Assembly: GCA_947474715.1 (NCBI GenBank)
Contig: CANJJT010000006.1
Coordinates: 12,588-76,587 of the forward strand
Reading direction: 5' to 3'
DNA from: Betaproteobacteria bacterium
Lineage (GTDB): Bacteria > Pseudomonadota > Gammaproteobacteria > Burkholderiales > SG8-39
Length of the DNA: 64,000 nucleotides
The notes under the pieces were generated by a model. That model was not told the origin of the DNA. It saw nothing but the letters and a program-made list of their open reading frames with translations, and did no database searches. Shown here piece by piece: positions 38,429-44,670 of the stretch. Made by a program: the position numbers and the translations under genes. Each line of letters begins with the position of its first letter. Position 1 is the stretch's first letter.

Positions 38429-39664
38429 GTGGCCACGTCCTCTACTGCTGCAAACTCTCCGCTGCTCAATAAACGTATCCTGCTCGGTCTCACCGGCGGA
38501 GTCGCTGCCTACAAGGCTGCCGAACTGACGCGTCTGTTCATCAAGGCCGGCGCCGACGTGCGCGTGGTGATGACCGAGGCCGCGACGCGCTTCATCGGGC
38601 CGGTCACCATGCAAGCCCTGTCCGGGCAGCCAGTCCATACCGATCTGTGGGATGCGCGCATCGCCGACAACATGGCGCACATCGAACTCTCGCGCGACCG
38701 CGACCTGATGCTGATTGCCCCGGCCAGCGCCGATTTCCTCGGCAAGCTGGCCAATGGCCTGGCCGACGATCTGCTCTCGACCTTGTGCATCGCGCGGCGC
38801 TGTCCGCTGGCGGTGGCGCCCGCCATGAACGTGGAGATGTGGTCCAGTCCGGCGACCCGGCGCAACGTGGCCCTGCTGCAGGGGGATGGCGTTCAGGTCC
38901 TGGGCCCGGCGGCAGGTGAGCAGGCCTGCGGCGAGACCGGCATGGGACGCATGCTCGAGCCCGAGGATCTGTACGCGAAGGTGCTGGCATTGCTCGGCAG
39001 TCAGGGCGCGCAGAGCCGGCCGCTCAAGGGGCGCAAGGTGCTGATCACGGCGGGGCCGACCTTCGAACCCATTGATCCGGTGCGCGGCATCACCAATACC
39101 AGTTCTGGGAAGATGGGCTATGCCGTGGCACAGGCGGCGGCCAGTGCCGGCGCCGAAGTGACGCTGGTGTCGGGCCATACCGCGCTGGCGGTGCCCCCGG
39201 GTGTCAGTCGCATCGACGTGAAAACGGCGCAGGACATGTATAACGCGGTGCTGCCGCGGGCGAAGAAGAACGACATCTTCATTGCGGTGGCCGCGGTTGC
39301 CGACTATCACGTGGTTGATGCCAAGGATCAGAAGATTAAGCGTGGCCACGGCAACATGACCATCAGGCTTGCCCCGAACCCGGACATCCTGGCCGCCGTT
39401 GCGAAACTGGCAAAGCCCCCGTTCTGCGTGGGCTTTGCCGCCGAGACCGAGAACCTGCGCGAGTATGCCCAGGCCAAGCGCAAGAAAAAGGGCATCCCGC
39501 TGCTGGCCGCCAACCTCGCCCAGCACGCCTTCGGACGTGACGACAATGCGCTGACGCTTTTCGATGACCAGGGCGAGCATGTCCTGCCGCGCACCTCCAA
39601 GGTGGAACTGGCGCACCAACTGATCACGCATATTGCCGGGATGCTTGAGCGTCGAGGTCGCTGA
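38429..39664 (+). CDS. coaBC: bifunctional phosphopantothenoylcysteine decarboxylase / phosphopantothenate--cysteine ligase
   Basis: ILLGLTGGVAAYKAAEL flavoprotein N-domain and ITAGPTFEPIDPVRGITNTSSGKMG CoaB motif. Confidence 0.9.
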   Translation: MATSSTAANSPLLNKRILLGLTGGVAAYKAAELTRLFIKAGADVRVVMTEAATRFIGPVTMQALSGQPVHTDLWDARIADNMAHIELSRDRDLMLIAPASADFLGKLANGLADDLLSTLCIARRCPLAVAPAMNVEMWSSPATRRNVALLQGDGVQVLGPAAGEQACGETGMGRMLEPEDLYAKVLALLGSQGAQSRPLKGRKVLITAGPTFEPIDPVRGITNTSSGKMGYAVAQAAASAGAEVTLVSGHTALAVPPGVSRIDVKTAQDMYNAVLPRAKKNDIFIAVAAVADYHVVDAKDQKIKRGHGNMTIRLAPNPDILAAVAKLAKPPFCVGFAAETENLREYAQAKRKKKGIPLLAANLAQHAFGRDDNALTLFDDQGEHVLPRTSKVELAHQLITHIAGMLERRGR

Positions 39665-39719
39665 TCATAATCAGTTTCACTGTCCAATGAAGACGGATAT
39701 GTGCTCGAAAAAATGATCA
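39661..39719 (+). repeat. 59-bp conserved intergenic element, copy 3
   Basis: CTGATCATAAT-N14-CAATG-N3-ACGG-N16-ATGATCA. The TGA at 39662-39664 is the coaBC stop codon, and the element ends 37 nt before the dut ATG. Confidence 0.75.
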
Positions 39720-39755
39720 TATTCTTATTTCACCATGGACGTTGGCAGACCAGCC

Positions 39756-40205
39756 ATGCAACAACTTGATGTAAGAATCCTCGATGCCCGCATGCAGGGT
39801 CACCTGCCTGCCTATGCCACTTCAGGTGCCGCCGGCCTGGATCTGCGCGCCTGCATCGATGCACCCCTGGAATTGCAGCCTGGCAGCACCATGCTGGTTC
39901 CGACCGGGCTGGCCATACACATCGGCAACCCGGGGCTGGCCGCAGTCATCCTGCCGCGCTCGGGTTTGGGCCACAAGCATGGCATCGTGCTCGGCAATCT
40001 GGTGGGCCTGATCGATTCGGATTACCAGGGCCAGTTGATGGTGTCGATGTGGAATCGCGGCAGCGCCCCCTTCACCATCCAGCCCATGGAGCGCGTCGCC
40101 CAACTGGTGGTGGTCCCGGTGGTGCAGGTCAGCCTGAACGTGGTGGAAGACTTCGCCGCCAGCGCACGCGGTGAGGGCGGCTTCGGCAGCACCGGCAAGC
40201 GCTGA
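39756..40205 (+). CDS. dut: dUTP diphosphatase
   Basis: AAGLDLRA and [25 protein letters not shown] motifs. ATG at 39756 (MQQLDVRIL). Confidence 0.9.
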
Positions 40206-40210
40206 GTCCC

Positions 40211-41533
40211 TCAGCCTGCGGGCTGTTCTCCCAGTGTGTCGTCCCACAGGGTGCGCGCCCAGGCCAGGCCATACAGTCCTTCGACGTCATTATGGCGTGC
40301 TGACACCCCGCCTGCCCCGGTCACCGGCAGCATGCTCTTGCGTGCGACATCGTAGCGATGCACCGAGGCGACGTGCATGGCCTCCCGATCGGAGACGAAG
40401 CTGTAGCAGGTGTTGATGATGCCGGGTGCCGCGGCAGGATCGACGGGGCGCCCGTTCATGATCTCGATGATGGCGGCAGCGGCAATCTTGCCGTGCTGGT
40501 TGGCCATCTGACCCGACTTGGGCATGCCCTGGGCAGACAGGGTGGCATCCCCCAGCACGTGCACGCCCTGGCTGACGGTCGATTCCATGGTCAGCCAGTC
40601 GACATCGCACCAGCGTCCGGTCTTGCCGGTCAGGCCGATGGCGCGCGCAATGCCGGCCGCCTGCATGGGGGGCAGGATGTTGAGTACATCGCCGCGGATG
40701 GTTTCGAAGTCGGTCCTGACGGTGCTCGTGCGCGCATCCACGGATTTCACTTCACTGTTCGGCCGGTAGTCGATGATGCCGCCATACAACTCCTTCCACG
40801 CCGCCTTGAACAGTCCGGGCTTGGAGGTGACATCCGGGTTGGCATCGAGGATCAGCACTTTCGAGCGTGGCTTGGCCTGTTTGAAATACCAGGCCACCTG
40901 GCAGGCGCGCTCGTAGGGGCCGGGCGGGCAGCGGTAGGGCGCCAGCGGAATGGAGAGGATGTAGGTGCCGCCATCGCGCATGGCTTCGAGCTGCCGGCGC
41001 AAGGCCACGGTCTCGGCGCCGGCCTTCCACGCGGCCAGGACGGTTTTGCGCGCAGCTTCGTCGTAGCCTTCGATCTGCTCGTGCATGTAGTCGATGCCCG
41101 GGGCGATGACCAGCCGGTCGAATGACAGGTCGGCAAAGCGATGGGCGAACTTGATGCGCTTGCGTTCCAGGTCGATGGCCGCGACCTCGTCGCCCATCAC
41201 ACGCACGCCGGCGGCCCGCAGCCCGTCGTAGCTGCGGGTGATGTTCTCCATGCGGCGCGAACCACCCAGCACCAGATTGGAGATGGGGCAGGAGACGAAT
41301 TGGTGCTCGCGGTCGACCAGCATCACCTCGATGGATTCACGCGACCACAGGCGCAGGTAGCGCGCTGCCGTGGCGCCGGCAAAGCCGGCCCCGACGATCA
41401 TCACACGGCCTACGGATTTCGCGGGAGGCGGCGATGAAGGCGCAGCGCAACCCGCCAGCCAGGCGCTGCCGATCGCACCGGTGGCCTTCAGGAAATGTCG
41501 CCGTCCCCGGCCTTGTTGCTGGTGCATGCTCAT
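40211..41533 (-). CDS. fccB: flavocytochrome c sulfide dehydrogenase flavoprotein subunit (FccB/SoxF-like FAD oxidoreductase)
   Basis: Tat signal GRGRRHFLKATGAIG, the FAD fold VMIVGAGFAGATAARYL, and translational coupling to an upstream c-type cytochrome gene. Confidence 0.75.
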   Translation of the reverse strand: MSMHQQQGRGRRHFLKATGAIGSAWLAGCAAPSSPPPAKSVGRVMIVGAGFAGATAARYLRLWSRESIEVMLVDREHQFVSCPISNLVLGGSRRMENITRSYDGLRAAGVRVMGDEVAAIDLERKRIKFAHRFADLSFDRLVIAPGIDYMHEQIEGYDEAARKTVLAAWKAGAETVALRRQLEAMRDGGTYILSIPLAPYRCPPGPYERACQVAWYFKQAKPRSKVLILDANPDVTSKPGLFKAAWKELYGGIIDYRPNSEVKSVDARTSTVRTDFETIRGDVLNILPPMQAAGIARAIGLTGKTGRWCDVDWLTMESTVSQGVHVLGDATLSAQGMPKSGQMANQHGKIAAAAIIEIMNGRPVDPAAAPGIINTCYSFVSDREAMHVASVHRYDVARKSMLPVTGAGGVSARHNDVEGLYGLAWARTLWDDTLGEQPAG

Positions 41534-41862
41534 GGCCGCGCCTCCCCAGAGTACCAGGCGGCGATGGCCTCGATCTGCCGGTCGTCATAGCCGCGTGCCA
41601 GCTGCGGCATGAGGGTGCCGCTGCGACGCCCGTCGCGAAAGTCCTTCATCGTTTGTGACAGATAGGCGCGTGGCTTGCCGGTGAGCACCGGCAGTCCGCC
41701 GGCACTGGTGTCCCGGGCGGCATGGCAACTGGCGCAGGCGGCGGCAAGGTTGCGCGCGAAATCGTGATTGGCGGTGATGCGATCCTGCGCATTCGCGGGC
41801 AGGGCATGTGCCAGTGCAGTCAGCGCAAGCGCGCTGGCGAGTAGGGTCAGCTGGGGTTTGAT
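41530..41862 (-). CDS. fccA: monohaem c-type cytochrome (FccA-like partner of FccB), not in the ORF track
   Basis: Hand translation gives (I/M)KPQLTLLASALALTALAHALPANA-QDRITANHDFARNLAAACASCHAAR...LMPQLARGYDDRQIEAIAAWYSGEARP*. It has a signal peptide and a CxxCH haem motif, and the TGA overlaps the fccB ATG (ATGA). The only sensible start is ATC 41862, 8 nt after GGAGG. Confidence 0.7.
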   Translation of the reverse strand: MKPQLTLLASALALTALAHALPANAQDRITANHDFARNLAAACASCHAARDTSAGGLPVLTGKPRAYLSQTMKDFRDGRRSGTLMPQLARGYDDRQIEAIAAWYSGEARP

Positions 41863-42036
41863 GGGAAGTTCCTCCGGACGCGCACCGATCCCCTGGTGGG
41901 GTGTGCCTGTTCATGGCTTGTTGGTAGCTTCGCCCGCCGGCGTCGCTGGTTGCCTTGTTGTGCCGGGAGTTTCACGGCAGCGGCGCCGACTGTCAAGGAT
42001 GCATCGGACGGGGAAGTCGCAGGCCCCGAAATGGAA

Positions 42037-42056
42037 ACGGGGGCCGCAGCCCCCGT
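42037..42056 (-). terminator. hairpin terminator downstream of clpA
   Basis: acgggggc-cgca-gcccccgt perfect 8-bp GC-rich stem about 30 nt past the clpA stop, followed on the minus strand by a T-rich stretch (tttccattt). Confidence 0.55.
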
Positions 42057-42085
42057 TGTGAGACGACTCGACGCGTACCGGGTTG

Positions 42086-44383
42086 TCAGGCTTCGGGGGT
42101 AACTTCCTTGACCTTCTCCTCTTCGAACCTGAGGACGACCTTGCCGGCGGCATCCGCATCCACCGTCACCTTGCCCCCGGAGGCAAGGCGGCCGAACAGC
42201 AACTCGTCGGCCAGCGCCCGGCGTATGGTGTCCTGGATCAGGCGTGACATCGGGCGCGCACCCATGAGTGGGTCGAAACCTGCCTTGGACAGGTGCTCGC
42301 GCAGCGCATCGGTGAAGACCGCATCCACCTTCTTCTCGTGCAGCTGGGCTTCCAGTTGCATGAGGAACTTGTCGACTACACGGACGATGACGTCATGGTC
42401 GAGCGAGCTGAAGGATATGGTGGCATCCAGCCGGTTGCGGAACTCCGGGGAGAACAGCCGCTTGATCTCGGCCATTTCATCGCCCATCGCCCGGCTGTTG
42501 GTGAAGCCCATGACGGTCTTGTTCAGCGCCTCCGCTCCGGCATTGGTGGTCATGACGATGATGACGTTGCGGAAGTCGGCCTTGCGGCCGTTGTTGTCGG
42601 TGAGCGTGCCGTGGTCCATCACCTGCAGCAGGATGTTGTAGATGTCCGAGTGCGCCTTCTCGATCTCGTCGAGCAGCAGCACGGCATAGGGCTTCTTGGA
42701 GATGGCCTCGGTAAGCAGTCCACCCTGGTCGAAGCCGACATAGCCGGGCGGGGCGCCGATCAGGCGGGACACGGTGTGTCGTTCCATGTACTCGGACATG
42801 TCGAAGCGGTGCAGCTCTATGCCCATGCAATAGGCGAGCTGCCGGGCCACTTCGGTCTTGCCGACGCCGGTCGGGCCGGAAAACAGGAAGGCGCCGATGG
42901 GCTTTTGCGGGTTGCCCAGGCCCGAGCGTGCGGTGCGGATGGCCGACACCAGCGCGTCGATTGCCTTGTCCTGGCCGAATACCACGGCTTTGAGGTCGCG
43001 GTCGAGGTTCTTGAGCGCGTTGCGATCGTTCTGGGACACCGAGGCTGGCGGGATGCGGGCGATCTTGGCGATGATTTCCTCGATCTCCGCCTTGCCGATG
43101 AGCTTCTTCTGCCGTGACTTGGGCAGGATCTTCTGCGCCGCGCCGGCTTCGTCTATCACGTCAATGGCCTTGTCCGGGAGGTGGCGGTCGGTGATGTAGC
43201 GCGCCGAGAGTTCTGCTGCGGTTGACAGGGCATTGGCGCTGTACTTCACGCCATGGTGCAGCTCGAAGCGCGATTTCAGGCCGCGCAGGATCTGCACGGT
43301 CTCGTCTATGGTGGGCTCCGGCACGTCGATCTTCTGGAAGCGCCGCGACAGCGCATGGTCCTTCTCGAAAATGCCCCGGTACTCGTTGTAGGTGGTTGCG
43401 CCGATGCACTTGAGGGCGCCCGAGGAGAGCGCCGGCTTCAGCAAGTTGGATGCGTCGAGCGTTCCACCCGAGGCGGCACCCGCGCCGATGATGGTATGGA
43501 TCTCGTCGATGAACAGGATGGCATTGGGATTGTCGACCAGCTGCTTGAGCACGGCCTTGAGGCGTTGCTCGAAATCGCCGCGGTACTTGGTGCCGGCCAG
43601 CAATGCGCCCATGTCCAGGGAATGGACCTGGCAATTGGCCAGGATCTCCGGCACCTGGCCATCCACGATGCGCTTGGCCAGGCCTTCGGCAATGGCGGTC
43701 TTGCCCACGCCGGCTTCGCCCACCAGCAACGGGTTGTTCTTGCGCCGTCGGCACAGTGTCTGGATCACGCGCTCCAGCTCATGCTCGCGGCCGATCAGCG
43801 GATCGATCTTCCCGGCCAGGGCCTGGGTGTTGAGGTTCTGGGTGTAGGTCTCCAGAGCGCCGCTGCCCTGCTGTTCCTCGGCGCCGGCTTCCTGCTCCTG
43901 CCCGGCGCCAGCCTTGGCATCCTTGCCCTGGGGGGACTTGGTGATGCCGTGGGAGATGAAATTGACCACATCCAGCCGCGTCACACCCTGCTGGTGCAGG
44001 AAGTAGACGGCATGGGAATCCTTCTCGCCGAATATCGCGACCAGCACGTTGGATCCGGTCACTTCCTTCTTGCCGGAGGACTGAACGTGGAGGATGGCGC
44101 GCTGGATGACGCGCTGGAACCCGAGCGTCGGCTGGGTGTCGATCTCCTCGCTGCCGGCCACGGTCGGGGTGTGGGCGGTGATGAAGTCCGAGAGAGCCTT
44201 GCGCAGCCCATCGATGTTGGCGGCGCAGGCGCGCAAGGCCTCCACGGCGGTGGGATTGTCCAGCAGTGCGAGCAGCAGGTGCTCCACAGTGATGAACTCG
44301 TGCCGCTTCTGGCGCGCCTCCACGAAAGCCATGTGCAGGCTGACTTCCAGTTCCTGGGCGATCACGTTTCCTCCATTAGACAT
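42086..44383 (-). CDS. clpA: ATP-dependent Clp protease ATP-binding subunit ClpA
   Basis: Two AAA+ modules ([13 protein letters not shown] and [15 protein letters not shown]) and a Clp N-domain. The start may be a few codons downstream (..[14 protein letters not shown]). Confidence 0.95.
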
Positions 44384-44670
44384 TGCAGGGGATGTTGGTG
44401 CTTGTGTGCGTAGGCGATGACCTGGTCCCGCTTGGTAGTGGCGATGTCGCGGGGGTAGATCCCGCAGACACCCATTCCCTCGCGGTGCACCTTGAGCATG
44501 ACCTGGGTCGCCTGTTCGCGGCTCATGGCAAAAAACTGCTGCAGGACAATGATCACGAATTCCATCGGGGTGTAATCATCATTCAGCAGCATCACCTTGA
44601 AAAGTGGCGGTGGCTTGAGCCTGGCTTTCTGGGCTTCAAGTATTGTGGCATCTCGAGAACGGGTAGCCAT
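44362..44670 (-). CDS. clpS: ATP-dependent Clp protease adaptor ClpS
   Basis: [19 protein letters not shown] core motif, immediately upstream of clpA. Confidence 0.95.

Follow-up and report, generated by a model that had tools for sequence, protein, structure and literature searches.

A conserved AUC codon as the probable start of an unannotated fccA-like cytochrome c gene

We analysed a 64,000-nt stretch of contig CANJJT010000006.1 from a Betaproteobacteria bacterium (the window; all coordinates are those of this stretch), in which a small cytochrome c gene lies directly upstream of fccB, the gene for the flavoprotein subunit of flavocytochrome c sulfide dehydrogenase (FCSD). Both genes are read on the minus strand. 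The frame of the cytochrome gene has no canonical start codon ahead of its signal peptide, and the best reading of the comparative data is that translation starts at a conserved AUC codon (ATC, 41860..41862, minus strand), to which we give a probability of about three in four. In nine out of nine lineages verified at the DNA level, an ATC preceded by a Shine-Dalgarno (SD) sequence heads the signal peptide. It stands at the position homologous to the ATG of more distant relatives, and most of the nine lineages offer no canonical alternative. The locus as a whole is best explained, from its sequence, as a functional and hitherto unannotated fccA, which would encode the monohaem cytochrome c subunit of FCSD.

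Read from the ATC, the cytochrome gene (41530..41862, minus strand) consists of 110 codons and a TGA, a frame that agrees with translation, Pfam and PDB matches, orthologue alignment and the ratio of nonsynonymous to synonymous substitution rates (dN/dS). It translates as IKPQLTLLASALALTALAHALPANAQ...CASCH...MPQLARGYDDRQIEAIAAWYSGEARP followed by the stop (the two ends can also be written IKPQLTLLASALALTALAHALPANAQDRITANHDFARNLAAACASCHAARD...TLMPQLARGYDDRQIEAIAAWYSGEARP and stop). In Pfam it matched PF13442 (Cytochrome_CBB3; 27.7 bits, cutoff 27) and PF00034 (Cytochrom_C; 25.2 bits, cutoff 21.3). The haem c attachment motif CASCH (C43-H47) is located at 41722..41736, with C43, C46 and H47 invariant across the alignments. 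Met85 in the sequence TLMPQLA (41608..41610) is equally invariant and is the likely sixth haem ligand, a role which we assume from what is generally held of class I cytochromes c. The N-terminus was recognised by inspection as a putative Sec-type signal peptide, (M/I)KPQLTLLASALALTALAHA (41803..41862), with a Lys, a 16-residue hydrophobic core and a predicted cleavage site after AHA or ANA (41788). At its other end, the TGA of the cytochrome gene (41532-41530) overlaps the ATG of fccB (41533-41531). An earlier note on this DNA, made from the letters and a mechanical list of open reading frames (ORFs), had described the 110-codon frame from 41862 with its CASCH site as well as the ATGA overlap with fccB; the former agrees with both the translation and the Pfam matches, and the latter can be read at 41533-41530.

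Upstream of the ATC, the cytochrome frame is closed by a TGA at 41913-41911. This stop and the ATC are separated by 16 in-frame codons (ACA GGC ACA CCC CAC CAG GGG ATC GGT GCG CGT CCG GAG GAA CTT CCC), among which there is no ATG, GTG or TTG, as the earlier note had stated, and no CTG either. Direct reading also upheld its GGAGG at 41871..41875 (minus strand), an SD with an 8-nt spacer to the ATC, and the coordinates bear out its argument that the first in-frame CTG downstream (41850-41848) would remove the positively charged n-region. Its remark that the ORF list held only a wrong-frame ORF at this place was correct in that the ORF 41585..41914 is listed, but "only" does not stand, as a right-frame GTG fragment of 52 aa (41530..41688) is listed as well. 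The wrong-frame ORF would encode 109 aa without a match in the Pfam search, and the ATG that heads it (41912..41914, minus strand) is out of the cytochrome frame and is not preceded by a purine-rich SD. The GC content at third codon positions fits the cytochrome frame, with 0.76 in the gene and ~0.6 upstream of it, over a stretch too short to locate the onset of coding.

Orthologous loci were found through FccB homologues and close cytochrome matches, all of them from metagenomes or metagenome-assembled genomes (MAGs). The nine DNA-verified lineages are the window and the loci L104, L012, L105, L095, L096, L097, L098 and L099, which have the layout clpA-cyt-fccB(-dut). Compared to the window, cytochrome identity is 90% for L104, ~73-74% for L012 and L105, 51-57% for L095, L096 and L097, and 42-44% for L098 and L099, and FccB identity across the lineages keeping the ATC goes down to 68%. 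In all nine, a GGAGG or GAGGAG is found 3-8 nt before the ATC that heads the signal peptide. The start sequences are GGAGGaacttccc ATC AAA CCC in the window, GGAGGaacatccc ATC AAA CCC in L104, GGAGGaattccc ATC AAG CCG in L012, GGAGGaataccc ATC AAG CCC in L105, ttGGAGGagcgcatc ATC AAA in L095, gtcGAGGAGcgcatc ATC AAR in L096 and L097, and cGGAGGaga(a/g)cc ATC ATT CGT in L098 and L099. The orthologous signal peptides, again judged by eye, have a Lys or Arg in the n-region followed by a hydrophobic core ending in A-x-A or AAQ.

For five of the nine lineages (window, L104, L105, L096 and L097), no in-frame ATG, GTG, TTG or CTG was found from the upstream stop or promoter to the ATC. In the same five, the first downstream ATG, GTG or TTG, if there is any, is located inside or beyond the hydrophobic core, and any in-frame CTG follows the ATC at a distance of 7-20 nt or more. 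The remaining four carry a GTG at codon -8 (L012), a TTG at -5 (L095) or a GTG at -6 (L098 and L099). These codons are at non-homologous positions; they sit on or directly beside the SD, and none of them stands behind an SD. Moreover, P0132, a relative of L099 (...SAAPRRRNIIRHH...), has an Ala at the position of the GTG of L099. The alignment of orthologous starts, which the earlier note had suggested, spoke for the ATC and its SD in all nine lineages and only in part against it, through these four upstream codons. The existing gene calls of the clade have lengths of 82, 84, 95, 96, 98, 99, 103, 106, 109, 110, 117, 124, 127, 130, 135, 148, 158 and 184 aa, a scatter that is in contrast to the ~104 aa of the outgroup proteins. 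Every upstream-extended call of the clade shows an Ile at the position of the ATC (EERIIK, EEHIIN, RRRRIIR, RRRNIIR), and this Ile is also present in five further extended protein calls beyond the nine DNA-verified lineages.

As an outgroup we used the loci L002-L092 and L103, with 77 distinct N-termini, obtained from a scan with the cytochrome alignment in which the matches listed were distant (at most 55% identity). Among the matches listed, all 77 distinct homologues have a canonical start heading the signal peptide: by rule 65 were assigned an ATG, 6 a GTG and 2 a TTG, and 4 more were confirmed by eye. Set against this, the return of SD and ATC in eight lineages besides the window is more than chance would give. 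The typical outgroup context is tcGAGGAGnnnnnn ATG ATC CGN, translated as MIR... (GAGGAG-N6-ATG). In the clade, the contexts are GAGGAGcgcATC ATC AAR (GAGGAG-CGC-ATC ATC AAR) and ATC ATT CGT, and both SD and position match those of the outgroup ATG. The ATC of the clade thus stands where the ancestor had an ATG. The replacement would have occurred in the common ancestor of the Burkholderiales-type clade with the arrangement clpA-fccA-fccB-dut, and the ATC would have been retained since.

Two public assemblies encode an FccB identical to that of the window. One of them, L094, shows no difference from the window across 6.4 kb (100% identity) and is probably the same assembly. The other, L093, matches it at 96.3% across 7.3 kb; most of the differences fall in clpA, and they mark L093 as an independent assembly. 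The window, L093 and L094 are identical across 601 nt covering the leader and the cytochrome gene, including the ATC, the SD and a GGGG run in the leader. L093 equals the window from ~38815 to 42627 (dut, fccB, the cytochrome gene, the leader and the 3' end of clpA) and diverges sharply inside clpA (42628-44518), with ~270 of the 278 mismatches beyond 42628. This pattern could reflect strain recombination or a chimeric metagenome contig.

The leader between clpA and the cytochrome gene contains three blocks of fixed geometry in 7/7 aligned lineages: a hairpin (ACGGGGGC...GCCCCCGTTT), the sequence CTTGACAG and, 17 nt on, GAAACT. The hairpin, ACGGGGGC-UGCG-GCCCCCGU followed by UUU (42037..42056, minus strand), resembles a terminator of clpA and is conserved in all seven; it was not called in the terminator scan because its T tract is short. 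The other two blocks form a promoter-like element (41968..41996, minus strand) consisting of TTGACA (41996-41991), 17 nt and GAAACT (41973-41968), which is conserved in the seven lineages, with CTTGACAG and AAACT invariant and the spacing fixed. We infer that TTGACA-N17-GAAACT is a promoter of the sigma-70 type, of which the -35 is perfect and the -10 weak. A consensus promoter scan of the leader called nothing, because the -10 matches at 3/6 positions. The upstream ATGs of L012 and L097 fall inside or before this conserved element, and if the promoter reading is right, the upstream ATGs chosen by gene callers in L012, L097 and L098 are located within the promoter or ahead of it.

The spacing of the leader elements also bears on the coding character of the stretch before the ATC. 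Across lineages, the distance from SD to ATC is 8, 8, 7, 7, 5 and 6 nt, and from the -10-like box to the ATC it is 38 nt versus 39 nt in L096 and L097, a pair that is nearly identical in this region apart from that. The frame in which a shared GGTGCGC block is read differs between the window and L012. Since both the SD-ATC spacings and the lengths of the 5' untranslated region (UTR) vary by non-multiples of three, the upstream stretch is not coding. An Rfam search of the leader gave no match, and the leader did not fold better than shuffled sequences (z = 0.08); we therefore propose no riboswitch or structured leader.

Two observations on individual leaders stand apart from this. In L098 (1480-1650), the leader from the promoter element to the SD measures 187 nt, compared to 65 nt in L099, which corresponds to an insertion of ~120 nt in the 5' UTR. 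In L001, a Burkholderiales MAG (2538-2620), and in P0128, the spacer between clpA and the cytochrome gene is only ~30 nt and both hairpin and promoter are gone. In both, the cytochrome gene begins with ATG GTT CTC (MVLAALLLSLPAAAQ in L001), and its product has no charged n-region. By sequence, the L001/P0128 lineage is nested in the clade and would have regained a canonical start through rearrangement.

Taken together, we propose that fccA would have a promoter of its own beyond the clpA terminator, from which fccB would be transcribed as well. The GGAGG 8 nt upstream would position the 30S subunit at the AUC, assisted by AAA as the second codon; a strong SD and an AAA or AAG second codon are known to raise initiation efficiency. 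The initiator tRNA would read the AUC as fMet, giving a precursor MKPQLTLLASALALTALAHA... (MKPQL...) which would be exported by Sec, cleaved and loaded with haem in the periplasm. Initiation at AUC in E. coli reaches 1-2% of that at AUG, and the product carries an N-terminal Met (10.1101/063800). The infC gene uses AUU or AUC across bacteria, and such starts are rejected by IF3 (PMC5499595). A likely consequence in the clade would be that FccA synthesis is low or IF3-sensitive, with fccB retaining its own SD and ATG. Candidate reasons that might favour a weak start are a low demand for FccA, a matching to the haem-maturation capacity or an IF3-linked control.

Of the three options that the earlier note had left for this site, the rare AUC start is the one favoured by the SD and ATC in 9/9 lineages. 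Several points nevertheless weigh against it. The support is comparative, and ATC is the preferred Ile codon in this genome of ~65% GC, so that the identity of the codon would also be conserved if the site were an internal Ile. In four of the nine lineages, the in-frame GTG or TTG 5-8 codons upstream are possible starts, and a near-identical contig, P0001, puts an upstream ATG in frame. The evidence for the promoter is its conservation, with a weak -10, and transcripts reading through from clpA could carry upstream codons. Furthermore, it is not easy to see how a start of 1-2% efficiency would serve an enzyme in which FccA and FccB are present 1:1.

The alternative that best withstands these data is initiation at another codon or by another route, namely at the CTG at 41850, at lineage-specific GTG or TTG codons, or through a -1 frameshift from a GTG upstream ORF (uORF; MRVRRNFPSNPS and stop) at A_AAC_CCC, which overlaps the ATC. 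CTG is an allowed start in translation table 11, L012, L095, L098 and L099 do have the GTG or TTG 5-8 codons upstream, and in the window the out-of-frame GTG ORF ends 4 codons past the ATC and contains a heptamer of the X_XXY_YYZ type. However, the upstream GTG and TTG codons are non-homologous, lack an SD and are missing from five lineages, and we consider it unlikely that the gene is started in one of these ways. Individual candidates were rejected as well. The CTG is 20 nt from the SD, and its use would cost the charged n-region; nor is it conserved, with ATC in its place in L012 and ACT in L105. Both the uORF and A_AAC_CCC are absent in L096 and L097 (ATCAAGCCC, ATCAAATCC) and in L012. A second ATC at codon -9 (41889-41887) has no suitable spacing to any SD and is replaced by GCG in L104.

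A different view is that the true start is the ATG at 41914 and that the GGGG run of the window (41890..41893, minus strand) contains a 1-nt insertion, be it an artefact of assembly or a genuine frameshift. In that case the 127-aa protein P0001, with its long n-region, would be the native product. P0001 is 100% identical to the window cytochrome over 110 residues and reads MNRHTPPGIGARPEELPIKPQ (MNRHTPPG followed by IGARPEELPIKPQ), as expected from the window sequence minus one G; one G fewer in that contig would put the ATG at 41914 in frame. L104 likewise has this ATG and the codons that follow it (ATGAACNGGCACACCCCA). Yet the window, L094 and the independent L093 all have the four Gs, and L104, at 90% cytochrome identity, keeps the same out-of-frame distance of 52 nt from ATG to ATC as the window. 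The out-of-frame state is thus shared by L104 and the window, and P0001 is the outlier. P0001 comes from a single contig of 1092 bp, its G-run variant is known from the protein only, and the contig's spacer between clpA and the ATG is one base shorter (170 versus 171 nt). In addition, the ATG at 41914 has no SD, the short 5' UTRs of L096 and L097, with only ~38 nt from the -10 box to the ATC, do not contain it, and no other lineage has a homologous in-frame extension. We hold this start to be distinctly unlikely and take the P0001 variant for an indel, or a slip of assembly, in a leader that is not coding, although in that strain it could give an AUG-initiated form. The out-of-frame ORF headed by this ATG begins with MNRHTP in both the window and L104 (956-), where ATGAAC[A/C]GGCACACCCCA includes a synonymous AGG/CGG change; it is probably a chance ORF of GC-rich DNA.

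Inactivation of the gene, the last option of the earlier note, would mean that loss of the start codon has left FccB without its cytochrome. In favour of this, a canonical start is missing, E. coli initiates only very weakly at AUC, and fccB with its own SD could be made alone. On the other hand, the frame is open in 9/9 lineages from the ATC to the stop overlapping the fccB ATG, and the haem motif and the Met ligand are intact. Pairwise dN/dS values are 0.19-0.51 (0.77 for one pair) at dS of 0.4-1.7. With dN/dS well below 1 and intact frames, a pseudogene is very improbable. The SD before the ATC is itself conserved, and a dead gene would not outlast such divergence: at a dS of ~1 across lineages, SD and ATC have persisted through roughly one substitution per synonymous site. 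Finally, although ATC is one base from ATG, an error of sequencing or assembly, or an ATG-to-ATC substitution private to the strain, as the earlier note had also considered, is effectively excluded, since L093 and L094 are identical at the site and the ATC and its SD are kept in L093 and in eight other lineages from different samples and assemblers.

Among known cases, an AUC start of fccA most resembles that of infC, in which a near-cognate AUH start behind a good SD is conserved across many species. It differs from infC in that the window gene encodes a respiratory cytochrome predicted to be exported, with no obvious autoregulatory logic, whereas infC encodes a translation factor. Also, the AUC start seen here is confined to one clade whose sister lineages use ATG, and a link to IF3 would be drawn only by analogy to E. 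coli. Two genes other than infC are comparable. In E. coli, pcnB has an AUU start, a weak AUH start that holds expression down (10.1101/063800). The ATT start reported for ebpA of Enterococcus faecalis likewise keeps expression low; the gene encodes a secreted protein, and gene callers had chosen a downstream ATG (PMC4447247). Like these, fccA would be a non-infC gene with a weak AUH start, and its product, like that of ebpA, is predicted to leave the cytoplasm. Their starts are, however, AUU or ATT and verified by mutagenesis, whereas the window case is an AUC deduced from sequence comparison. On this basis, the window fccA would belong to the few conserved near-cognate starts (AUU/AUC in infC, AUU in pcnB, ATT in ebpA). 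Our literature search found no prior report of a non-canonical start of fccA.

To our knowledge, conserved non-canonical starts outside infC are very few, and cases with AUC are fewer still. If true, an AUC start shared by a whole clade, in a cytochrome predicted to be exported, would provide a clean natural example and would imply selection for weak or IF3-sensitive initiation. A tentative extension of AUC initiation is that the codon is selectively maintained and that the synthesis of FccA, and thus the electron output of sulfide oxidation, is tied to IF3 activity or ribosome status. The clade would then provide, next to infC, a second and independent conserved AUC start with a regulatory role, this time in a respiratory gene, and the G-run variant of P0001 would be a natural switch to an AUG-initiated, constitutive form. 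We regard this as possible but doubtful. In practical terms, gene callers limited to ATG, GTG and TTG drop the gene, truncate away its signal peptide or extend it into the promoter. The genomes of the clade thus seem to have an FccB without a cytochrome partner, which can mislead reconstructions of sulfide oxidation.

The identity of the enzyme was examined through both subunits. FccB (40211..41533, minus strand; 440 aa) has the Pfam domains PF21706, PF09242 and PF07992 and matches the flavoprotein chains of 1FCD, 3VRD and 5N1T at 1e-90 to 1e-95 (1fcd_A 1.8e-95, 5n1t_A 1.7e-90). Among FCSD cytochrome subunits, the window cytochrome matches the monohaem partner 5n1t_B (5.8e-10), 3vrd_A (2.1e-08) and 1fcd_C (2.3e-08), in the latter two of which the match is to the first haem domain; in this PDB comparison cytochromes c4 score slightly above the FCSD cytochrome subunits. 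The matches to 1FCD_A and 5N1T_B fit the fccA-like assignment made in the earlier note. As in 5N1T chain B, a small class I cytochrome c is encoded directly upstream of the flavoprotein gene, whereas FccA of 1FCD and 3VRD is dihaem and the window cytochrome has one haem. Compared to known FCSD cytochromes, it is only distantly similar in sequence and has a non-canonical start codon. As an enzyme component, it is by its sequence an ordinary monohaem FCSD cytochrome. The fccB gene has its own SD, GGGGAGG (41541..41547, minus strand), within the end of the cytochrome gene and 7 nt before the ATG at 41533. With GGGGAGG-N7-ATG, fccB need not depend on the translation of fccA.

FccB of the window clade further differs from known FCSD flavoproteins in bearing a twin-arginine (Tat) signal motif and a lipobox-like sequence. 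Residues 1-31 (41440-41533, minus strand) contain the twin-arginine motif GRRHFLKATG (RRHFLK), followed by a lipobox-like LAGC. A Tat signal with (Q/W/I)(L/I)AGC is present in most orthologues of the clade (P0125, P0006, P0007, P0010, P0011, P0015 and P0016), and FccB of P0008 and P0009 has an AAAQ-type cleavage site in place of the lipobox. These features suggest that FccB is a Tat-exported, lipid-anchored flavoprotein.

The gene order around the locus is clpS-clpA-cyt-fccB, with dut, coaBC and pmbA on the opposite strand. In L098 and L012, a guanylate-cyclase/FHA gene is located between fccB and dut.

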